From the NCBI GenBank assembly GCA_021817605.1, contig JAKAUN010000002.1:3676-67675 (forward strand): a stretch of DNA of 64,000 nt, read 5' to 3'. A model generated the notes under the pieces. That model did no database searches. It worked only from the letters and a program-made list of their open reading frames with translations, and was not told the origin of the DNA. The position numbers were made by a program, and so were the translations under genes. This DNA is from Thermoplasmata archaeon. GTDB taxonomy: Archaea > Thermoplasmatota > Thermoplasmata > Lutacidiplasmatales > UBA184. Of the stretch, positions 11,157 through 25,464 are shown one piece after another. Each line of letters begins with the position of its first letter. The stretch's first letter is position 1.

Positions 11157-13607
11157 CTAAGGAGGCGTGGCCACGGGCCCGGAGCCTTCGGGAGCCGCGG
11201 GTGACGGGCTCCCACCGGTCCGTGGTCGGGACCGACCGCCGGTGGCCCGTTTGCCCGACGGGGCCTTGCGGGGGGCCTTCTTCGTCGAACCTGCGGCGCG
11301 GGAGGTCTTGCTCCGCTTCTCCTGGGCGGGCTCCTTCTTGCGGGACGGGCACTCCGGGTTGATGCACAGGGTCCAGGGGGGCCGACCGGCCTCGATGGCG
11401 GTGACGACCGGCGCCTTGCAGACCGGGCAGGGCGGCTGGTCCTTGAGGAGCTTGCCGCGCTGGGGAAGCGGATAGGTGACGCGGCACTCCGGATAGCCCG
11501 AGCAGCCGACGAACCGCTTGCCGGCGAACGAGTAGCGGATCTGCAACGGATGCCCCGAGCTCGGGCAGGTGCCGATGCGGAACGCCTTCTGGTTCTCGGC
11601 GCACTCCGGATTGATGCAGTAGAGCTCGGGCCGCTGGCCGCGGAAGGTGATCTTCACCCGCGGGACCTGGCAGGCCGCGCAGAGGAACTCCGGCGCGGGC
11701 TCGACGAATCCGGCCGGCGGCAGCGAATAGCTCACGGTGCAGGAGGCCGGGTTGTTCGAGCACTGCACCCAGCGCGACCCGCGCGGGCTCCTTCCCAGGC
11801 GGAGAGCGCCGCCGCAGCGAGCGCACGGTCCGACGAAGTGCTGCGCGTCCAGCGCGCCGGTGAGGGTCGCCCGTACCCCCTCGGAGTTCTTCGCGAGGAG
11901 CTCGTAGGCATCCCGAAGCATCTCGCGGGAGTCGGCAAGCACGTCCGACTTCGCCTTCTTCGTCTCGGCGACCAGCTCCATCTCCTCCTCGAGGCGGTGG
12001 GTCATCTCCGGCCGGGTGATGAGAGGCGCATGGGCACGGAGCGCCTCGGTGACCGCGATCCCCGTCGACGTCGGCTCGAGCTGGCGCGCGCTCACGTAGT
12101 GGCGGTCGAAGAGCTTCTGCAGGACGTCGTGACGGGTGCTCTTCGTCCCGAGCCCGAGGCGCTCCATCTCCTGGATGAGGGAGCCCTGCGTGTAGCGACG
12201 CGGAGGCTTGGTCTGCTCCTCCCGTAGTTCGACCGCGTCCAGCACCACCGTCTCGCCGACGGCGAGGGCAGGCATCGGGCTCTCGTCCGGCTGGGAATAC
12301 GGGTAGATCCGGTACCAGCCGGGGTCGGTAAGGCGATGGCCCTTCCCCTCGAACCGCTCCCCGCGTACGTCGACCGCCACGGTGCGGCTCCAGCCCAGAG
12401 CGTCCGGGCCCAGCGTCGCGAGGAACCGCCGCACGACGAGCTCGTAGAGCTGGGCGGCCTCCGGCTTGAGCTTCTTCGGGTCGATGGCCGCGGTCGGGTA
12501 GATCGGAGGGTGGTCGGTCGTCTCCGTCCTACCCCGCGTGGCCCTAAACGTCGGCTGGGAGAGGACGAGTTCGGCGGCGGAGGCGAACGGGGTCTCCTTG
12601 AACTTCTCGGCGAGCGTCCTGAGCCCGAGGCCGCGCGGGTAGACGGTGTTGTCCGTCCTCGGGTAGCTGATGATCCCCTGGGTGTAGAGGTCCTCGGCGA
12701 TCCGCATCACCCGCGCCGCCCCGAGACCGAGACGGGTCGCCTCCGCGACGAAGAGGGTCGTGGAGAACGGCACCGGCGGCCGACGTCGGGTCTCCTCCTC
12801 GGAGAACTCTCGGACGCTCCCGTCCCTTGCGTCCCGGACGCGGGCGAAGACCGCTTCGGCCTCCTCCTTCTTCTCCCAGATGCCGTGGGCGTGGTGGAGG
12901 GTGAACGCCTCCTCGCCTTTCGAGGCGCGGGCGACCAGCTCCCAGTAGGGGGTCGGCTCGAACTCCTTGATCGACTGGTCGCGTTCCACGAGCAGCGCGA
13001 GGGTCGGGGTCTGCACCCGTCCCACGGAAAGGAACCCTCGGCCCTGCGTGCCGGCGGTGAGGGAGAGGTAGCGGGTGAGCAGCGCTCCCCAGACGAGATC
13101 GATCTCCTGCCGGGACTCCGCCGCCTCGGCGAGAGCTCGGTCGACCTCGACCAGCTGGGTGAAGCTCCGCTCGATCTCGTCGCGCGTGAGCGCGCTGTAG
13201 CGCGCGCGCTTCACGTCGATCCCGGGGTGGATCTCCTGGAGGAGGGTGAGCGCCTCGAGGCCGATGAGCTCGCCCTCGCGGTCGAAGTCGGTCGCGATGA
13301 TGACCCGATCGAACTCTCGCACGATCTCCTGGAGCGCCCCGACGATCGCCGGCTCGGTCACCCGCTTCTCGGGGGCGGCGTCCAAAAGCCGGGGGAGGCC
13401 CGCGAGGCTCCACTGGGAGTGCTCTTCGGGGTAGTCGAGCTCGACGATATGCCCGCGAAGCCCGACCACGGCGTAGGGCCCCTCGCTCCGCTGGAACCGG
13501 AACACCGGGGTCCCGCGCACGCGCGCGCGCTCCATCCGGCCGTCGGAGAGGACGATGGCGATCCGCAGGGCCGTGCTGAACTTCTCGGTGACGACGAGGG
13601 TGCGCAT
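11157..13607 (-). CDS. topA: DNA topoisomerase I (type IA) with C-terminal zinc-ribbon repeats
   Basis: Toprim N-terminus MRTLVVTEKFSTALRIA. 816 aa. Active-site region ...ISYPRTDN.... Multiple C-terminal CxxC...CxxC fingers. Confidence 0.85.
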   Translation of the reverse strand: MRTLVVTEKFSTALRIAIVLSDGRMERARVRGTPVFRFQRSEGPYAVVGLRGHIVELDYPEEHSQWSLAGLPRLLDAAPEKRVTEPAIVGALQEIVREFDRVIIATDFDREGELIGLEALTLLQEIHPGIDVKRARYSALTRDEIERSFTQLVEVDRALAEAAESRQEIDLVWGALLTRYLSLTAGTQGRGFLSVGRVQTPTLALLVERDQSIKEFEPTPYWELVARASKGEEAFTLHHAHGIWEKKEEAEAVFARVRDARDGSVREFSEEETRRRPPVPFSTTLFVAEATRLGLGAARVMRIAEDLYTQGIISYPRTDNTVYPRGLGLRTLAEKFKETPFASAAELVLSQPTFRATRGRTETTDHPPIYPTAAIDPKKLKPEAAQLYELVVRRFLATLGPDALGWSRTVAVDVRGERFEGKGHRLTDPGWYRIYPYSQPDESPMPALAVGETVVLDAVELREEQTKPPRRYTQGSLIQEMERLGLGTKSTRHDVLQKLFDRHYVSARQLEPTSTGIAVTEALRAHAPLITRPEMTHRLEEEMELVAETKKAKSDVLADSREMLRDAYELLAKNSEGVRATLTGALDAQHFVGPCARCGGALRLGRSPRGSRWVQCSNNPASCTVSYSLPPAGFVEPAPEFLCAACQVPRVKITFRGQRPELYCINPECAENQKAFRIGTCPSSGHPLQIRYSFAGKRFVGCSGYPECRVTYPLPQRGKLLKDQPPCPVCKAPVVTAIEAGRPPWTLCINPECPSRKKEPAQEKRSKTSRAAGSTKKAPRKAPSGKRATGGRSRPRTGGSPSPAAPEGSGPVATPP

Positions 13608-13767
13608 CGGGGGACGTAGAGAGGAGGAAGGGGTTAGATAAGGTATCAGGCGACCCGATGCCCTGCCGGCGGCCCGAACGCGGGCGCGCGCGTTCGTCCT
13701 TGGGCGACGGGGCTCGGAGCCCCCTCGCCGTTGTGGCCACGACGCCGGGCCGGTCGGGTTGGCACGC

Positions 13768-13774
13768 TTTATAC
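13768..13774 (+). promoter_or_regulatory. TATA box (TTTATAC) for tRNA-Phe
   Basis: Centred about 27 nt upstream of the mature tRNA 5' end at 13799, the canonical archaeal spacing. Confidence 0.55.
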
Positions 13775-13798
13775 TGGGCTCGTGGTCGGGGCCACCGC

Positions 13799-13872
13799 GC
13801 CGCGGTAACTCAGTTTGGGAGAGTGCAAGACTGAAGATCTTGAAGCCGCCGGTTCAAGCCCGGCCCGCGGCA
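13799..13872 (+). tRNA. tRNA-Phe (anticodon GAA), no intron, CCA not encoded
   Basis: Folded manually. Acceptor stem GCCGCGG/CCGCGGC. D arm ACTC-AGTTTGGGA-GAGT. Anticodon stem CAAGA/TCTTG with loop CTGAAGA. T arm GCCGG-TTCAAGC-CCGGC. Discriminator A. 74 nt. Confidence 0.9.
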
Positions 13873-17987: not shown

Positions 17988-18346
17988 CGACCCAGATCAC
18001 CCCGGCTTCGGGCAGGGCTCCTCAACGGTCCCCCGCTAAAATTGTTTCCGCGGGACCGGGGGCTTCCCGAACGGACCGCCACGACGACGGCCTCGGAGCG
18101 GCGCGGCCTGGGCGTGGGACGGACACCGCCGGCCCACTCCGAGCCCGAGGGCGAACGCGAGAAGCCCCCGAGCCCGCGCCGGGGCCCCCCGGCGGGAACC
18201 GCCGGAGGACGGGTCGGCCGTCCGGCCGGAATCCGACCCCGTGCCGCGACGGGGCGGGAGAGGGCTCGGGACGTGGGCGCTCTTCTCCGCGCCCGAGCCG
18301 CCGGTCCGAGAGACCGCCGCGCTCCCGGTGAGCCTCCTGGTGACTG

Positions 18347-21300
18347 CTAGGGCACTTCCTTGCGGTCTGCGCACGCCGCGTCCGTGGGACGGTCCTCGTC
18401 TCCCGCGGTCTGCCCCCCAAGAGCAGCTCCCGACCGGGAGGCGCCCGCCGCGGCCAGGAGCAACGTCGTCGCGAGAGCGGCTGCCGCGGGGAGCGCGAGC
18501 CCGGCACCGCCCACCGGCCCGCCGACCGACAACGCGGACGGAAGGCGGGGGAGCGCGGGGGGGTTCATGGTGACGTTGACGAGCTGCCTCGGAGACGGCG
18601 CGTGGAGCACCGCAATCGTTCCGCTGGCAGGGGTCGGGGCCTGCGTGTTCGCGACCCCCACGGTGTAGGTGTAGTTGCCTATCGGCAAGAGGAAACGGAT
18701 GACGCCCTTGCCGGCGAGCTTCGAAAGGGTCGTGGGGAAGGTGAGCGCCGGGGTCGAGCCGGTCGCGATCGTGACCGTCCAGGTCGCCCCAGCCTGTAGG
18801 CCCTTCTCGCGGAAGACGATCGCCTCGGTCAGTAGGCGGAACTTCACCACCTTGGTGAGGGCATGCTTGGGAACGTGGAACCCACCCTTGGCCGGCAGGA
18901 CCTTGTACTCCGCTCCCGGGCCGGCGATCGCGAAGTGGAAGGCGGCGCCGGTCGGTAGGGAGAACGATATCGAGGTGCCGGTCGATGTCTTCGACTGGCC
19001 GGCGGGTCCGCCGTGGGGGAACGCGGGGGTGAGATCAACTCCCCAGGTCGACCCCGCGTACTTCTGGAACTTCGCTAGCGAGCTCTGGTTGAAGGTGACC
19101 GTCTGGAGGTGCCCGAAGATGACCGTCCACGTGGCGACCCCCGACAGCGAGTAGGTCGGGGTCCCGTAGGTCTGGTTGGGCGACCCCGGACCCGCGATCC
19201 TGGCGACCCCCCATCCTGCGGGCCCACTGATGTTGTAGACGAGGGCGCCTGCCGCCTCCGAGAACGAGACCGAACCTGTCGACCCGGTCCCGGTCGTCAC
19301 CGTGGTGTCGCTCCTCACGATCCCGAGAACATCCACCGACCAGAGCGCCCCGGCCGGGAGGTGGAGCTCCCGGAAGCGCAAGGTGTGCCCGAGCGACGCC
19401 GTGAAGACGATGGGGATGTTCACGGGGCTCCCGCTGATCGAGAACTGCCCGCCGTAGAGGCTCGCGGCGAACCCCGGCACGAAGGGGATGGTGAAGTTGT
19501 AGCTGATGTTTTGGGCGTCCATGACCATCGCGTCGGGAGCCGGGGCGGTCGCCGTCACCGTGCCCGGAGGCGTGCCGAAAGCATGGCCGATCGAGAGCGA
19601 CCAATTCGTCCCGTTCGGGAGACCGGTCTCCGTGAACGTGGCGAGTTCGCCGGCTAGCAGGCTCGAGTTCGTCACCGCGTAGGCCTTCGACCAGTAGACG
19701 CTGGTCCCCGCGAACACGTTCTCTTGGAGGGTGATCGTGGTGAGCCCGTTGAAGCAGTCCGTCGCCTCGATGGACGCCGTCGGCACGACACTGGCGGCGC
19801 AGCTAGCCGCCGACTGGCTCGCGCCGTTGGACCCGGACGTGCTGGTCCCGATCAGCACGTTGTGGGCTGCCATCTGCGCCGTCCCGATGAGGAAGATCCC
19901 CGGCGCCCCGCTCGCCGCGTTGTTGACCACGTTCGCATCCACGGTGGTGATTCCCGTGCCTTGCGGCTCGGTCACGATGCCGTAGGCGAGGCTGTCGGTC
20001 ACGGTGTTGCCGTCGATCGTCGCCGGGGCGCCCGCGATGCCCGCGTAGCTCGAGGTGTACATCGCATACAAGATTCCGACCGAGCTCGAGCCCACGTGGT
20101 TCGCCTCGATGTTGCACGTCAAAGCCCCCGGAGCACATCCGGCCCAGATCGCCGACGATTGGGTCTGGGTGAAGTAGGAGCCGCCGGTCTCGAAGGAGAA
20201 GCCGCGGACGGTGTTGCCTGAGACGGTCACCGAGCTACCCCAGACGATGATCCCGCCCTCGGAGGCCGCCGTATCGGCTGCCCCTGGGCCGAGAACCGTG
20301 TTGCCGATCACCGAGAAGGTCCCGGTGGGCTCGACCGACGTTGCGGGGAAGATGTCGCCCGCCTCGATCCCCACCGGGCCGCCGGGGCCGGCCCCGCCGG
20401 CTCCGAGCGTGACCGTCGAGGATTCGATCGTGGCGCTCGTCAGGGCGGGGGCCACGATGATCCCGTTGACAGCGCCCGTTCCGAGCGTCGTCGCGTCCTT
20501 CACCGTGACCCCGTTCGCTTGGACCCCGATCGAGTTGCCGTCGCTCGGGTAGCCCGTCGTGTTGATCGTGAAACTCGCCCCGTTGAGCGTGCTGTCGGCC
20601 CAGTAGTCCGTAACGTTGCCCGCAAAGCTCGAGCGCAACGTGGCGACCGTGCCGGCTACCGACACCAGGCTGGCGTTCGTCGGGATCCCGCTCGAGCTCA
20701 GCACGAGCTGGCCGGGAGCCGCGTGGACGAACACGAGCACCGGCTCGACCACCGCCGAGCCGCTGACGGAGCCAACACCCGGGGTGATCAGCGTGTTCTC
20801 GTACCACCCGCCAATCGCTCCGATGCCGTAGGAGAACGATCCGTTCTGGAGATCGCCGACGATCGACGCCGGCGCGGGAACGTTGGCCGTGGTGCCGTTC
20901 ATCGTCACGGACCAGTCGAGGCCCGGGGTAAGGCCGCTCTCGGACCACGTAACATGCTCCCCACCCCGCTGGAACGAAGTCGCCGGGTAGGTCGGGAAGG
21001 TCGCCGTCCAGTCCGGCGCGTTCGTCTGAGCGAAGATGTTGGCGTTCAGCGTGACCTCGGTCGCGGGGTTGAAGCAATCGGTGGCCTCGACCGACGCGGT
21101 CGGGATCGTCGAAGCGACGCAGCTCGCCTGACCTTGGAGCGCCCCGTTGGTGCCGGTGGTGTTCGTCCCCAGGAAGACGTTCCCGGTCAGCGAGAAGGTC
21201 CCTCCAATGAGATAGGCGCCTGGGGCGCCGCTGGGAGCACTGGCGAACGTGTTGGACTCGACCAGGGAGACTCCCGCGGCCCCGGTGGGCTCAAGGACCA

Positions 21301-22240
21301 TCCCGTAGGCGAGGCTGTTGGTGATGGTGTTGTGCAGGACCACTACGGCCGATTGAGCGATGCTCCCAAAACCGGAGGTCATGAGGGCGTAGACGATGCC
21401 GATGCCGTTCGTGTTGAGGGTGTTGGAGTTGATGTCGCACGCAGGCGCGCCTACGGCGCAGCCGGCGAGGATCCCCACGGACTGGGTGTCCTGGAACCAT
21501 GAGGAGTAGGTATTCGCACCGGAGGTCGTGGTCGTGTCCAGGGAGAATCCGCTCACCGTGCTGTTGGTGATCGCGACGGAGTTTCCGTAGACGACGATCC
21601 CGGTCTCGCCGGCGGTGCCTCCCGCACCAGGACCGACGACCGTGACCGCGTTCACGACGAAGGTGCCCGTGGGCTCGACCGCCGTGGCCGGGAATACGTT
21701 GCCGAGCTGAATCCCCAGAGCCGTCGTGCTTCCGGCGGCGAGCGTCACCGTCGAGCTTTCGATCGTCGCCGAGGAGGTGACGAGCGAAGGCGCCGCAAGG
21801 ATCCCGTCCGTGCTGCCGCTCGAGATCGTCACGAAATTCTGCACCGTGATGCCGTTCGCCTCGAGGCTGAGAGCCGCGAGGTCGGTGGGATACGCCGTCG
21901 CGTTGACCACGCACCCGGAGCCGTCCAGCATACTGTTGGCAAACGAATCAGAAAGGTTGCCCGAGAAGCCCTCGAGCACCGTCACCACCGAACCGTTGAC
22001 GGAGACCGCTGTCGGGTCGCTCGAGACCCCTCCGGCAGAGATGGTGACCGTCCCGAGACTACCGGCGGAGGGGCAGGCGGCCAAGGTGGAGAAGGCAGGC
22101 CCTCCCGGCGCCGATCCGACGGAGGACCCGAGGAAGGGGCCCGCGCCGGCAATCGTGGGGGCAAGGGCGAACCCCACCACCGCGAGGAGGCCGACCAGGG
22201 CCGCCCGGACCACCACGCGTCGAGGGGCGCTCATAGCCAC
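18347..22240 (-). CDS. Large secreted/cell-surface protein (1297 aa): signal peptide, two tandem right-handed beta-helix modules each followed by a beta-sandwich domain, further beta-sandwich repeats, C-terminal membrane anchor
   Basis: N-terminal signal MAMSAPRRVVVRAALVGLLAVVGFALAPTIAGA. Dozens of N-x-S/T sequons. Gly/Thr/Ser/Asn/Val-rich beta-helix-like repeats with conserved TIESSTVTL, FPAT(A/S)VEPTGTF, ASCxAS..PTAS(V/I)EATDCFN. C-terminal hydrophobic stretch LALPAAAALATTLLLAAAGA followed by a charged tail. Confidence 0.75.
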   Translation of the reverse strand: MAMSAPRRVVVRAALVGLLAVVGFALAPTIAGAGPFLGSSVGSAPGGPAFSTLAACPSAGSLGTVTISAGGVSSDPTAVSVNGSVVTVLEGFSGNLSDSFANSMLDGSGCVVNATAYPTDLAALSLEANGITVQNFVTISSGSTDGILAAPSLVTSSATIESSTVTLAAGSTTALGIQLGNVFPATAVEPTGTFVVNAVTVVGPGAGGTAGETGIVVYGNSVAITNSTVSGFSLDTTTTSGANTYSSWFQDTQSVGILAGCAVGAPACDINSNTLNTNGIGIVYALMTSGFGSIAQSAVVVLHNTITNSLAYGMVLEPTGAAGVSLVESNTFASAPSGAPGAYLIGGTFSLTGNVFLGTNTTGTNGALQGQASCVASTIPTASVEATDCFNPATEVTLNANIFAQTNAPDWTATFPTYPATSFQRGGEHVTWSESGLTPGLDWSVTMNGTTANVPAPASIVGDLQNGSFSYGIGAIGGWYENTLITPGVGSVSGSAVVEPVLVFVHAAPGQLVLSSSGIPTNASLVSVAGTVATLRSSFAGNVTDYWADSTLNGASFTINTTGYPSDGNSIGVQANGVTVKDATTLGTGAVNGIIVAPALTSATIESSTVTLGAGGAGPGGPVGIEAGDIFPATSVEPTGTFSVIGNTVLGPGAADTAASEGGIIVWGSSVTVSGNTVRGFSFETGGSYFTQTQSSAIWAGCAPGALTCNIEANHVGSSSVGILYAMYTSSYAGIAGAPATIDGNTVTDSLAYGIVTEPQGTGITTVDANVVNNAASGAPGIFLIGTAQMAAHNVLIGTSTSGSNGASQSAASCAASVVPTASIEATDCFNGLTTITLQENVFAGTSVYWSKAYAVTNSSLLAGELATFTETGLPNGTNWSLSIGHAFGTPPGTVTATAPAPDAMVMDAQNISYNFTIPFVPGFAASLYGGQFSISGSPVNIPIVFTASLGHTLRFRELHLPAGALWSVDVLGIVRSDTTVTTGTGSTGSVSFSEAAGALVYNISGPAGWGVARIAGPGSPNQTYGTPTYSLSGVATWTVIFGHLQTVTFNQSSLAKFQKYAGSTWGVDLTPAFPHGGPAGQSKTSTGTSISFSLPTGAAFHFAIAGPGAEYKVLPAKGGFHVPKHALTKVVKFRLLTEAIVFREKGLQAGATWTVTIATGSTPALTFPTTLSKLAGKGVIRFLLPIGNYTYTVGVANTQAPTPASGTIAVLHAPSPRQLVNVTMNPPALPRLPSALSVGGPVGGAGLALPAAAALATTLLLAAAGASRSGAALGGQTAGDEDRPTDAACADRKEVP
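19370..22009 (-). repeat. Intragenic tandem duplication: two ~440-aa modules (about aa 78-517 and 518-957) of the surface protein
   Basis: Manual alignment of the two halves shows colinear conserved blocks, estimated ~45-55% identity. Examples: GNLSDSF.../GNVTDYW..., TIESSTVTL in both, GFSLDT/GFSFET, TDCFNPATEVTLNANIFAQ/TDCFNGLTTITLQENVFAG, VTWSESGLTPGLDWSVTM/ATFTETGLPNGTNWSLSI. Module boundaries are approximate. Confidence 0.6.
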
Positions 22241-22419
22241 CCCTCGCTTAGGTCGACCCGTTCGAACCGCGCAGAACCGCTTCGGGATTCGGGAGCAAAC
22301 ACCATCTCCGCTACCTTACCTTAGATTTGAGAGGGTCAGCTGAATAAATACCAGTTGCCCCCCGGGCCAAGGACCGGCGGTCGGCGTCCGCTTTTCGGCC
22401 CTCGGGAAGCAACAACGCC

Positions 22420-22425
22420 TAAATA
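22420..22425 (+). promoter_or_regulatory. TATA box (cCTAAATAgg) for the EF-1alpha operon
   Basis: About 36-41 nt upstream of ATG 22461. Sits in the AT-rich 220-nt divergent intergenic region. Confidence 0.45.
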
Positions 22426-22460: not shown

Positions 22461-23738
22461 ATGGCACAGAAGCCCCACCTCAACATCGTGTTCATTGGCC
22501 ACGTCGACCACGGGAAGTCCACGACCGTCGGCCGGCTGCTCCTGGATACCGGCTACATCCGCCAGGAGGAGATCGACAAGTTCCGCGCCGAGGCCGAGGC
22601 GAAGGGCAAGGCGACGTTCGAGTTCGCCTGGGTGATGGACGAGCTCAAGGAGGAGCGCGAGCGCGGTGTGACGATCGACATCGCCCACCGACGGTTTGAC
22701 ACCCAGAAGTACTACTTCACCATCATCGACGCCCCCGGCCACCGCGATTTCGTCAAGAACATGATCACGGGGACGAGCCAGGCCGATGCGGCGGTCCTCG
22801 TCTGCTCCGCGGCCGAAGGGATCCAGGAGCAGACCCGCGAGCACATCTTCCTCTCCCGTACGCTCGGGGTAGCCCAGCTCATCTGCGCCGTCAACAAGAT
22901 GGACCGCCAGGAGGTCGCCTACTCCGAGGCGAAGTACGAGACGATCAAGGAAGAGCTCACCAAGCTGCTCAAGAACGTCGGCTTCAAGGTCGACCAGCAG
23001 GTGACGTTCGTCCCGATCTCGGCGTTCAAGGACGACAACATCAACAAGGCGAGCCCCAACATGTCCTGGTTCAAGGGCCCGACCCTGCTCCAGGCGCTCG
23101 ACGCGCTCAAGGTCCCCGAGAAGCCTACCGATAAGCCTCTCCGCCTCCCCGTCCAGGACGTCTACACGATCACCGGGATCGGAACGGTCCCCGTGGGCCG
23201 GGTCGAGACCGGGAAGCTCAAGCTCGGCGACAAGATCACCTTCATGCCCAGCGGCAAGACCGGCGAGGTGAAGACCATCGAGATGCACCACGAGGCGGTC
23301 CCCGAGGCGATCCCGGGCGACAACATCGGCTTCAACGTCCGCGGGATCGACAAGAACGACATCCGCCGCGGGGACGTCGCCGGGCCGGCCTCCAACGCCC
23401 CGACGGTCGTGGAGAGCTTCATCGCCAACATCCAGGTGCTCAACCACCCGAGCGTGATCACGGTGGGCTACACACCGGTGTTCCACTGCCACACGGCGCA
23501 GGTCGCCTGCGAATTCACCGAGCTCCAGAAGCGACTCGACCCGAAGACCGGGCAGGTCGCCGAGGAGAACCCCCAGACCTTGAAGACGGGGGACGCGGCG
23601 GTGGTGAAGATCACCCCGAAGCGCCCGCTGGTCCTCGAGAAGTACAAGGAGTTCCCCCAGCTCGGCCGTTTCGCCGTGCGCGACATGGGCCAGACCGTCG
23701 CCGCCGGCGTCGTCGTCGACGTCAAGAAGCGCGCCTAG
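22461..23738 (+). CDS. tuf: Translation elongation factor 1-alpha
   Basis: [27 protein letters not shown]..., [12 protein letters not shown]. Full length 425 aa. Confidence 0.95.
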
Positions 23739-23781
23739 GCCCCGGGCACACGCACCGGGGCTTGGGAGGGGGAGGGCGTCG

Positions 23782-24093
23782 GTGGTGCAGAGGGCTCGGA
23801 TCTCGCTCAGCGGGATCGACGCCGGCAAGGTCGACTCGATCTGCAAGCAGATCCGGGAGATCTCCCAGAAGACCGGTGTCGCGATCGCGGGGCCGATCCC
23901 CCTTCCGACCAAGAAGCTCAAGGTCCCCGTGCGCAAGGGCCCGGACGGTGGCGGCACGAGCACCATCGACCACTGGGAGATGCGCATCCACAAGCGCCTC
24001 ATCGACATCGACGCGGACGAGCGGGCGCTTCGCCAGGTGATGCGCATCCAGGTTCCCGACGGCGTCAACATCGAGATCGTCCTCACGGGGTAG
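23782..24093 (+). CDS. rps10: 30S ribosomal protein S10 (uS10)
   Basis: ...[61 protein letters not shown] matches archaeal uS10 nearly residue for residue. Confidence 0.92.
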
Positions 24094-24097
24094 GGGC

Positions 24098-24724
24098 GTG
24101 CTCGCCCCCGGGGCCGGTCGCTTTCTTCTGCCGGTCGCCCTGCTCCTTTTCCTCGACCTCGTTCTCCTCCTCCTCGGAACCCCGCCTCTCGGAGCGGCGG
24201 GCTTCGGGCTCGCGGCGGTCCTTGTCGGTCTTTTCGGCTTCTTCGCCGTCTTCTTCCGCGATCCCGAGCGGAGGGTCGGGGAGGGGATCGTTTCCGCCGC
24301 GGACGGCCGCATTCGGGCCGTCGAGCGGCTCGGGGAGCGCTGGCTCGTCTCGGTGTTCATGAACGTCACCGACGTTCACGTGAATCGCCTCCCCTTCGAT
24401 GCGACGGTCGAGGCGATCGACGCTCTGGGCGAGGGGTTCCGCCCCGCCTACCGCCACGACGCGGAGGCGAACGTTAAGCGTCGCTACCGGCTCGCCACGT
24501 CGCTCGGCACGGTGGAGGTCGTCCAGATCACCGGGATCCTGGCGCGTCGCCTGGTCCCGTTCGTCCGGGTCGGGGACTCCGTGGCGAAGGGAGCGCGGCT
24601 CGGCATGATCGTGCTCGGCTCGCGGGTGGACGTGCTGCTGCCGGCGGAGAGGACCGAGCCGACGGTCCGTGTCGGGGACCGGGTCGTCGCGGGGGTCACC
24701 ACGATCGCGAGGGTCCGGCCGTGA
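24098..24724 (+). CDS. psd: Archaetidylserine (phosphatidylserine) decarboxylase proenzyme, small archaeal type
   Basis: N-terminal TM segment. LGSRVD (G-S-x pyruvoyl-forming motif) near the C-terminus. 208 aa. Immediately upstream of pssA with a 4-nt overlap. Confidence 0.7.
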   Translation: MLAPGAGRFLLPVALLLFLDLVLLLLGTPPLGAAGFGLAAVLVGLFGFFAVFFRDPERRVGEGIVSAADGRIRAVERLGERWLVSVFMNVTDVHVNRLPFDATVEAIDALGEGFRPAYRHDAEANVKRRYRLATSLGTVEVVQITGILARRLVPFVRVGDSVAKGARLGMIVLGSRVDVLLPAERTEPTVRVGDRVVAGVTTIARVRP

Positions 24725-25464
24725 CGGACCGCTGGCGTGTCGGCGCGAACCTCGCCACCCTCGGCAACGGCCTTCTCGGAGTCGGCGCGGTCCTCTACAC
24801 GGTCGCGGGCAACAAGCTCTGGGCGATGCTCCTCATCACCCTCGCCATCGGGCTCGACGGACTGGACGGGCTGCTCTCCCGCCGGAGCGGCTCTGCGCCC
24901 GGGGCGTTCGGGCGCATCGCCGACTCGGCGGCGGACGCCGTCTCCTTCGGGGTCGCTCCCGCCGTCCTGGTCGCTGTGCACACCTCGGAGGTCGGCCTCT
25001 GGGCCCCGTACGCGACGCTGACGCTCCTCGCGGCCCTCGTCTACCTCGGCGCCGCCGTCGCGCGGTTGGCCTACTTCACCGCCCGAGCCCACGCGCTCCC
25101 GCACTTCCTCGGCATCCCGAGCCCCCAGGCGGCCCTCGCGGTGATCGTGACGGGGCTGTTCCTCGACACGCCGGCGCTCGCCCGGGTGGACCCGGCCGTC
25201 ACGGTCGCCGTCGTGCTCGCCATCGCCGTCCTCATGCTCGTGCCCGTGCCCTATCCGAAGATCCGGCGCGGGAGCCCGCTGCGCTGGCCGATGGCGACGA
25301 CCGCCGCCTTCGGGGCCCTCGCGCTCGTCCCCCTCCAGTTCCGCCTCGGCCGAGGGAGCCCGCTCTACGACCTCGCCTCCGCGGGGGCCTGGGGGCTCCT
25401 GGTCGGGGTGGCCGCCTATTACCTCGTGGGACCGTTCACGCTGGGTCGGCGAAAGGAGGGCTAG
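24721..25464 (+). CDS. pssA: CDP-alcohol phosphatidyltransferase, archaetidylserine synthase
   Basis: DG-x2-AR-x8-G-x3-D-x3-D signature: GLDGLDGLLSRRSGSAPGAFGRIADSAADAV. Multi-TM protein. Confidence 0.75.
   Translation: MTDRWRVGANLATLGNGLLGVGAVLYTVAGNKLWAMLLITLAIGLDGLDGLLSRRSGSAPGAFGRIADSAADAVSFGVAPAVLVAVHTSEVGLWAPYATLTLLAALVYLGAAVARLAYFTARAHALPHFLGIPSPQAALAVIVTGLFLDTPALARVDPAVTVAVVLAIAVLMLVPVPYPKIRRGSPLRWPMATTAAFGALALVPLQFRLGRGSPLYDLASAGAWGLLVGVAAYYLVGPFTLGRRKEG

Follow-up and report, generated by a model that had tools for sequence, protein, structure and literature searches.

The closest described counterparts of the protein analysed here are methanogen adhesin-like proteins and the Methanosarcina-type 'surface layer proteins' (Jing et al. 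2002, Structure 10:1453; reference 67 of PMC10354927). Like our protein as predicted, these are large, secreted and archaeal, join a right-handed beta-helix to small beta-sandwiches and to a membrane anchor at the C-terminus, and have a modular, variable architecture. The beta-helix fold itself is common to enzymes (epimerases, lyases and glycosidases) and to non-enzymatic adhesins, and binding can thus not be separated from catalysis by fold alone. In mannuronan C5-epimerases and alginate lyases (AlgE4, AlgG) the catalytic Asp/His/Tyr cluster forms a DPHD-type motif. The S-layer of Sulfolobus offers a different model, in which the coiled-coil protein SlaB has a partner of its own, SlaA, as the canopy. 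The envelope proteins of uncultured Thermoplasmata that carry the module family reported here are essentially uncharacterised, and a search of the literature found no description of the family.

The gene lies on the minus strand of a 64,000-nucleotide stretch of DNA (the window, 70% GC) from an uncultured soil archaeon of the Thermoplasmata. It had been described as a 1297-aa open reading frame, which is how it is listed from a GTG start (18347..22240, minus strand); the frame stands, and the start was revised. An ATG at 22234, two codons inside this frame, has GAGGGGTGG just before it, and the resulting 1295-aa product is 100% identical to the database protein P0001 and the same as an independent gene call. 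GC3 of the reading frame (0.87-0.88) is as in real genes of the window. The features of the locus are as follows:

22343..22350, minus strand: TATA-like box TATTTATT, about 110 nt 5' of the ATG, read directly from the sequence; putative own promoter
22237..22245, minus strand: Shine-Dalgarno-like GAGGGGTGG, directly 5' of the ATG, read from the sequence
18347..22234, minus strand: complete gene, 1295 codons, ATG at 22234, TAG stop at 18347-18349, GC3 0.88
22136..22234, minus strand: signal-peptide-like N-terminus, aa 1-33, with an Arg-rich n-region and a hydrophobic core, then ...TIAGAG
20975..22063, minus strand: beta-helix 1, right-handed parallel, aa ~58-420, Cys pairs C259/C266 and C372/C387
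20720..20962, minus strand: CnaB/prealbumin-like beta-sandwich 1, aa ~425-505, repeat HMM E=9e-12, all-beta in the module model
19655..20719, minus strand: beta-helix 2, duplicate of beta-helix 1, aa ~506-860, Cys pairs C700/C707 and C812/C827
19391..19651, minus strand: CnaB/prealbumin-like beta-sandwich 2, aa ~862-948
19115..19384, minus strand: beta-sandwich 3, FRELHLPAGALWSVDV, aa ~951-1040, repeat HMM E=2.6e-9 over aa 951-1015, C-terminal boundary estimated
18845..19099, minus strand: beta-sandwich 4, divergent, aa ~1046-1130, repeat HMM E=2.8e-4 (weak)
18560..18820, minus strand: beta-sandwich 5, FREKGLQAGATWTVTI, aa ~1139-1225, repeat HMM E=4.8e-5, module HMM E=5.6e-6 for its sandwich portion
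18437..18514, minus strand: C-terminal Ala/Leu-rich hydrophobic segment, putative transmembrane anchor, aa 1241-1266, Kyte-Doolittle maximum 1.87
18350..18436, minus strand: 29-aa C-terminal tail SRSGAALGGQTAGDEDRPTDAACADRKEVP, presumed cytoplasmic, from the translation

Scans of the whole window with Rfam and tRNA models found a tRNA-Phe alone, and the 350-nt spacer 3' of the gene gave no Rfam or tRNA match. Read-through of the TAG into an open Arg/Pro-rich frame downstream was considered and rejected, because a second frame on the same strand is also open across most of the spacer and GC3 is lower there; we judged the open frame to be a by-product of GC-rich non-coding DNA.

As stated in the preliminary description, the gene is divergent from that of EF-1alpha (22461-23738, plus strand), and the gene positions bear this out. 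The same description read the arrangement as a very strong promoter context, which we could not uphold: EF-1alpha has a TATA-like TAAATA of its own at 22420-22425 (plus strand), about 70 bp from the box of the surface-protein gene, and the adjacency to EF-1alpha was missing in all homologue loci compared. With a GC3 of 0.88 and an ENC of 37, the surface-protein gene ranks among the least biased genes of the window, while EF-1alpha has a GC3 of 0.93. Its neighbours include, besides EF-1alpha, a thioesterase, an HTH protein and OTCase. None of seven neighbouring window proteins had a homologue in the related loci compared, the neighbourhood of the homologue P0002 is unrelated to that of the window, and no conserved operon partner was found among the homologue loci compared.

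BLAST of the whole protein against itself returned the identity match alone, and the internal duplication became visible once the protein was split into halves. BLASTP of the halves aligned aa 69-500 with aa 516-943 at 43% identity (E=3e-89) over the whole ~440-aa module, and a module HMM placed the copies at aa 58-508 and 505-946, the second scoring 548 bits. Given a two-residue offset, this agrees with the two colinear copies of about 440 aa proposed earlier (78-517 and 518-957), and the ASC.AS..PTAS(V/I)EATDCFN block noted with them recurs in each of the two copies and in the majority of homologous modules. The module adopts a right-handed parallel beta-helix fold, as had been anticipated. 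Against Pfam Beta_helix (PF13229) the window protein scored 20.2 bits, with a cut-off of 25.9 bits; 8 of the 16 family module copies matched Beta_helix (E<=0.01, best 7.4e-10) and three matched NosD. All 16 copies share one Cys pair, and 12 have the second as well. In the 16-copy alignment the invariant polar residues of the helix part are Q197, S198, E261 and T325 together with five regularly spaced Asn, and most of the other invariant positions are Gly, a pattern of Gly and spaced Asn that would be expected of structural beta-helix positions. A profile search of PDB sequences with the module returned nothing significant, and no paralogues or further repeat proteins were found elsewhere in the 64-kb window.

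The repeat HMM found five copies of the beta-sandwich (aa 428-497, 866-946, 951-1015, 1046-1130 and 1139-1209), that is, one closing each module and three more, where two to three further copies had been expected. A PKD or Ig fold, suggested for this domain at the outset, gave way to a CnaB/prealbumin-like fold. Aligned over 64 repeats, the domain keeps E, G, L, W, N, G and G nearly unchanged, and none of its conserved residues is a Lys, which makes a Lys-Asn/Asp isopeptide bond impossible in the repeat. No Pfam or NCBIfam model was found for the repeat, NCBIfam being blank for repeat-rich homologues as well, and the best hit of a PDB-sequence profile search with the repeat or module, a SpaA-like prealbumin-fold protein at E=0.02, was not significant. 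About 600 representative proteins match this ~80-aa repeat. Elsewhere it is fused to unrelated heads (phosphoesterase, YNCE/NHL propeller, NosD), and in P0009 an array of about 25 copies has a transmembrane segment at its end; unrelated heads and such an array argue that the repeat acts as a generic surface stalk.

Hydropathy analysis showed hydrophobic segments where a signal peptide and a C-terminal anchor with a charged tail had been proposed. The N-terminal hydrophobic segment (aa 5-35) reaches a Kyte-Doolittle maximum of 2.47, and the homologues likewise begin with a hydrophobic segment. Twin-arginine export, raised by the 'PRRVVV' motif, was rejected, the RR not being conserved among homologues. 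The C-terminal segment (aa 1241-1266) is Ala-rich and only moderately hydrophobic, and the charged residues of the 29-aa tail leave it net acidic. Comparable C-terminal segments with basic tails are found in P0005, P0007 and P0009; the close homologues P0002, P0003 and P0010 have none. No PGF-CTERM or archaeosortase signal was found among NCBIfam models at E<=1. In place of the 'dozens' of N-x-S/T sequons first reported we counted 20, a modest enrichment over shuffles of the same composition (13.1 +/- 3.1). Two sequon positions are conserved across homologues, and the NG[ST] sequon is retained in 52 of 64 repeats and in 15 of 16 modules; a GN[ILV][TS]D sequon is conserved as well. Charged residues make up 7.9% of the ectodomain, compared to 25.1% of the 19 other window proteins. 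Collectively, the signal-like N-terminus, the C-terminal segment, the Cys pairs, the conserved sequons and the low ectodomain charge suggest a protein that is secreted and anchored at the membrane.

When a genome collection was scanned with a 9-copy core alignment as query, the beta-helix module was found in seven species-representative genomes, all titled Thermoplasmata MAGs, at one locus per genome. Several of the family's MAGs bear soil-survey isolate names. The architecture varies among homologues: some have a single module and others two, and an extra NosD-like domain or the anchor may be present or absent. In P0002, P0004 and P0007 the module copies within one protein are more closely related to each other than to any other copy. 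Such variation in modules and anchor, with kinship of copies within a protein, is typical of the evolution of adhesin-like surface proteins.

We therefore favour, with somewhat better than even confidence, a membrane-anchored, N-glycosylated surface protein of adhesin-like or glycan-binding type, whose export, glycosylation, topology and binding are predictions from sequence. Sec export and signal cleavage would yield a type-I surface protein, probably N-glycosylated. Three CnaB/prealbumin-like sandwiches would form a stalk over one C-terminal transmembrane helix. On this stalk two 'head' modules would sit in tandem, and each head would consist of a right-handed parallel beta-helix of CASH/NosD type, with the conserved disulfides as putative staples and its own sandwich as a cap. 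The helices have long flat faces that may attach to polymers outside the cell, with glycans as the most plausible ligands, or to adjacent components of the surface, and we propose that in this way the protein contributes to the glycoprotein coat of the cell.

Since the fold is shared with enzymes, the two tandem helices might instead be catalytic, making the protein a surface-displayed polysaccharide-modifying enzyme (a C5-epimerase, lyase or glycosidase) acting on the cell's own exopolysaccharide or on plant or microbial glycans of the soil. The core module copies do have conserved motifs in common, such as WFEDTQSVGI, AYGL.AEPTG and TASVEASDC, and the two Glu and one Asp retained by the 12 core copies could form an active site. 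However, Q, S, E and T are the only invariant polar helix residues other than Asn in the 16 module copies, and the remainder has the structural pattern described above. No His, Asp, Lys or Arg is invariant in that alignment, so that neither the DPHD-type epimerase motif nor the Lys or Arg base of lyases is conserved. Identity to any enzyme among the 60 matches listed is at most 18%, and no glycan-utilisation genes are adjacent; we consider this reading unlikely. A further reading takes the protein for a NosD-like periplasmic or surface accessory protein that handles copper or sulfur for a metalloenzyme. The window protein matched neither Pfam NosD (PF05048) nor NCBIfam, whose models include the NosD subfamily TIGR04247, no nosZ, nosF or nosY-like genes are adjacent, and its tandem duplication and long stalk set it apart from NosD, all of which makes this role highly improbable.

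The preliminary description had put the protein forward as a candidate S-layer or major envelope protein. In such a role it would be a lattice-forming glycoprotein with the beta-helices as canopy and the sandwich stalk and transmembrane helix as pillar. Consistent with this, the protein is large, of secreted type, charge-poor and rich in Ser, Thr, Gly and Ala, with conserved sequons and a hydrophobic C-terminal anchor; its occurrence at one locus in each of the seven species-representative MAGs fits a single essential envelope protein, and the 64-kb window holds no other candidate. Nevertheless, the Pfam and NCBIfam scans returned a sub-threshold Beta_helix and a chance-level RIF5_SNase_2 alone, with no match to an S-layer or PGF-CTERM model, and the anchor is missing in P0002, P0003 and P0010, while close relatives differ in the number of modules and in their N-terminal domains. 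The codon bias is weaker than that of EF-1alpha, which counts for little in a 70% GC genome; the adjacency to EF-1alpha is unconserved and its TATA-like box is separate. As for precedent, the Methanosarcina beta-helix 'surface layer proteins' reportedly proved, in later work, to be something other than the main S-layer protein. We regard a major lattice-forming role as rather unlikely, and as doubtful indeed its most specific form, an S-layer glycoprotein of an uncultured acid-soil Thermoplasmata lineage with a tandem beta-helix lattice on an integral CnaB-like stalk and a transmembrane anchor. If true, this would amount to a 'SlaA plus SlaB' in one polypeptide, an S-layer architecture so far undescribed. 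The analysis gave no specific evidence that the window protein is the main envelope (S-layer) protein.

With this gene, one uncultured Thermoplasmata lineage has a concrete and well-folded surface-display candidate. The ~80-aa CnaB-like repeat is suited to curation as a domain family of its own and could serve as a marker for surface proteins in these archaea; otherwise the window protein is an ordinary modular beta-helix surface protein of a familiar archaeal class.

In contrast to the Methanosarcina-type proteins, the window protein has neither a YVTN beta-propeller nor a PKD domain, its sandwich being CnaB/prealbumin-like, and its beta-helix and sandwich are duplicated as one ~440-aa unit; no sequence relationship was detected past the Beta_helix clan. 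Compared with the CASH/NosD/AlgE4 beta-helices, it scores below the Beta_helix cut-off, does not conserve the catalytic residues of epimerases and lyases and has no nos operon, and its putative disulfide-stapled loop (ASC...TDCFN) is an extra specific to its own family. The CnaB-type stalks of Gram-positive pilins and MSCRAMM adhesins (GBS52, Spy0128, the SdrD B-repeats and CnaB2, the SpyCatcher parent) differ from the archaeal repeat, which lacks the conserved Lys and a Pfam CnaB match, and has a conserved NG[ST] sequon; the window protein would be anchored by a transmembrane helix instead of LPXTG and sortase. With Sulfolobus SlaB, the S-layer stalk (PDB 8qox chain B), it has no sequence homology and no evident coiled coil in common, and where SlaB relies on a partner, the window protein would unite a putative canopy and stalk in one polypeptide.

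The open reading frame at 18347..22240(-) encodes 1297 aa when counted from GTG. An ATG at 22234, two codons further on and with GAGGGGTGG ahead of it, gives a 1295-aa product (the window protein) that matches database protein P0001 exactly; the same product came from a gene call made independently on a different contig. GC3 in this frame is 0.87-0.88, like that of the real genes of the window, where GC content is ~70% throughout. An Arg-rich start leads into a strongly hydrophobic stretch at aa 5-35, and a hydrophobic Ala/Leu-rich segment at aa 1241-1266 is followed by a 29-aa tail, in agreement with the signal-like N-terminus and tailed C-terminal segment of the preliminary description. The N-terminus (22136-22234, -) begins MSAPRRVVV, with a twin-arginine-like pair. 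Tat export was considered; the RR is not kept in homologues, which makes Sec export appear more likely. Charged residues account for 7.9% of the ectodomain (K+R 2.1%) versus 25.1% in 19 other window proteins, and Ser+Thr for 23.5%, a charge-poor, Ser/Thr-rich bias common to the homologues. Extracellular proteins of acidophiles are typically depleted of charge in this way. N-x-S/T sequons, previously put at dozens, number 20, a modest excess over composition-preserving shuffles (13.1 +/- 3.1). With the exception of this count, the initial observation is confirmed.

When the window protein was cut into halves and these were aligned to each other, aa 69-500 and aa 516-943 showed 43% identity over 444 columns (E=3e-89). 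A module profile likewise set two units, at aa 58-508 and aa 505-946, so that the proposed internal duplication was recovered by both approaches. The ASC.AS..PTAS(V/I)EATDCFN block, as first described, is present in both copies, and also in most homologous modules. All 16 modules keep one Cys pair, and 12 of them have a second; a GN[ILV][TS]D sequon near the helix start is retained in 12/16, and an NG[ST] sequon within the sandwich in 15/16 (52 of 64 repeats).

In Pfam, the only match of the window protein was Beta_helix, below threshold (20.2 bits against a 25.9-bit cut-off); NCBIfam gave no match, and sequence profiles gave no significant match in the PDB. Structural neighbours of the module include many phage tailspikes, depolymerases, and GH and PL enzymes, at 8-18% sequence identity among the matches listed. 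Foldseek agreed, though more weakly, and Pfam Beta_helix matched 8 of the 16 module copies (best 7.4e-10) and NosD 3. We conclude that the module is a divergent CASH/NosD-type beta-helix.

That its best structural neighbours are enzymes would speak for a catalytic module, and two Glu and one Asp kept in a 9-copy core alignment would suit a hydrolase. However, most of the helix residues invariant across all 16 copies are Gly or belong to an Asn series with regular spacing, the others being Q197, S198, E261 and T325 (module numbering); no His, Asp, Lys or Arg is invariant there. Epimerases require a DPHD-type site and lyase chemistry has its own catalytic residue requirement, and the lack of such invariant residues argues against both. 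We consider catalysis unlikely.

A sandwich profile derived from P0009, a homologue with regular 77/80-aa repeats, located one repeat in each module and, as anticipated, further ones behind them, three in number.

Sandwich repeats of the window protein (P0009-repeat profile)
aa 428-497, repeat 1, E=9e-12
aa 866-946, repeat 2, E=4e-15
aa 951-1015, repeat 3, E=3e-9
aa 1046-1130, repeat 4, E=3e-4
aa 1139-1209, repeat 5, E=5e-5

These five copies (window 18560-20962) have counterparts in P0009, P0011 and P0012. The repeat is CnaB/prealbumin-like and spans ~77-85 aa, with the consensus Y.VTF.E.GLP.GT.W.V...NG[ST]Y.Y.V..GY, and P0009 carries ~25 in tandem with a strict 77/80-aa period. An exhaustive search of representative proteins returned 597 at E<=1e-3, the majority through the sandwich repeat alone, often in 5-40 matched stretches. 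In the members sampled, the heads are unrelated (phosphoesterase, YNCE/NHL propeller, NosD) or no further domain is recognisable; the repeat therefore acts like a generic surface stalk. Neither Pfam nor NCBIfam holds a model for it, and this widespread, uncurated CnaB-like stalk repeat with a conserved sequon is the most useful by-product of the analysis.

Only 12 proteins in a 5.8-billion-protein collection matched the window protein at E<=1e-3; those with names come from 'Thermoplasmata archaeon' MAGs, where their annotation is either hypothetical or 'right-handed parallel beta-helix repeat-containing protein'. Scanning one genome per GTDB species placed the module in seven genomes, one locus each, all titled Thermoplasmata MAGs and several with soil-survey isolate names.

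Architectures of homologues
P0002, P0003, P0004, P0006: two modules
P0005, P0007: two modules and an extra NosD-like beta-helix at the N-terminus
P0008, P0010: N-terminal NosD-like beta-helix and one module

A C-terminal hydrophobic anchor with basic tail occurs in P0005, P0007 and P0009; P0002, P0003 and P0010 stop directly after a sandwich domain, without an anchor. In the module tree, copies from the same protein are mutual closest relatives in P0002 (73% identity), P0007 (62%) and P0004 (56%), and the most diverged same-protein pair is that of the window protein (49% in the core; 16-copy alignment A1, P0001-P0010). The modules of P0007 and P0010, and P0006-m2, are of a subtype without the second Cys pair, and P0006 combines both subtypes. 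This pattern points to copies that arose by recurrent, independent duplication, by shuffling or by concerted evolution, and not from a single duplication fixed long ago.

The gene is indeed divergent from EF-1alpha (22461-23738, +), across a 226-bp intergenic region with two separate TATA-like boxes.

22343-22350, minus strand, TATA-like box TATTTATT, ~110 nt ahead of the window-protein ATG
22420-22425, plus strand, TATA-like box TAAATA, ~36 nt ahead of the EF-1alpha ATG

With a distinct box for each gene, the EF-1alpha promoter is predicted not to be shared, which removes the strong promoter context once claimed. Within 22461-25464 (+), EF-1alpha is followed by an rpS10-like ORF (end 24093) and then by phosphatidylserine decarboxylase and CDP-alcohol phosphatidyltransferase, which resemble a pair for polar-lipid head-group synthesis right behind translation genes. 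On the other side, a GC-rich 350-nt spacer (17997-18346) runs from the TAG stop to a 4HBT thioesterase gene, which has a TTTTA box of its own near 18040. The big-gene frame stays open for ~118 codons beyond the stop, its Arg/Pro-rich translation resembling the Pro/Arg-rich tails with which P0009 and P0011 are annotated beyond their TM segments. The spacer has no Rfam match and the frame is probably non-coding, which suggests that those tails may be over-extended ORFs. The sole RNA gene detected in the window, tRNA-Phe (GAA; 13799-13872, +), overlaps the upstream end of the topoisomerase I stop-to-stop frame (11157-13853, -), whose start must therefore lie further downstream.

The large size and composition of the window protein, its single locus per genome and its SlaB-like stalk would fit an S-layer or 'major' envelope protein, as initially proposed. 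Nothing specific was found in support, however: no S-layer or PGF-CTERM model matched in Pfam or NCBIfam, and anchor and architecture are unconserved among homologues. Codon usage (GC3 0.883, ENC 37.1) falls at the weakly biased end of window genes, with EF-1alpha at GC3 0.93, a weak indicator in a high-GC genome. The gene has its own TATA-like box and sits among unrelated housekeeping genes (LonB, proteasome alpha, UvrA, topoisomerase I, thiolase, OTCase, thioesterase, HTH protein, EF-1alpha/S10, PS decarboxylase, citrate synthase, DnaJ). None of seven neighbouring window proteins had a counterpart at the homologue loci compared. We consider an S-layer role improbable.

The likeliest reading, which we favour by a little, is a type-I membrane-anchored, N-glycosylated surface protein, adhesin-like or glycan-binding. 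Two disulfide-stapled CASH-type beta-helix heads, each with a CnaB-like cap, would be borne on a stalk of three more CnaB-like domains, below which a predicted TM helix would lead into a short cytoplasmic tail. The 'surface layer proteins' of Methanosarcina combine beta-helix, beta-sandwich and anchor (Jing et al. 2002, as cited in PMC10354927). The window protein belongs in the same class as these and the methanogen adhesin-like proteins, but differs from them in its sandwich fold and its duplicated composite module.
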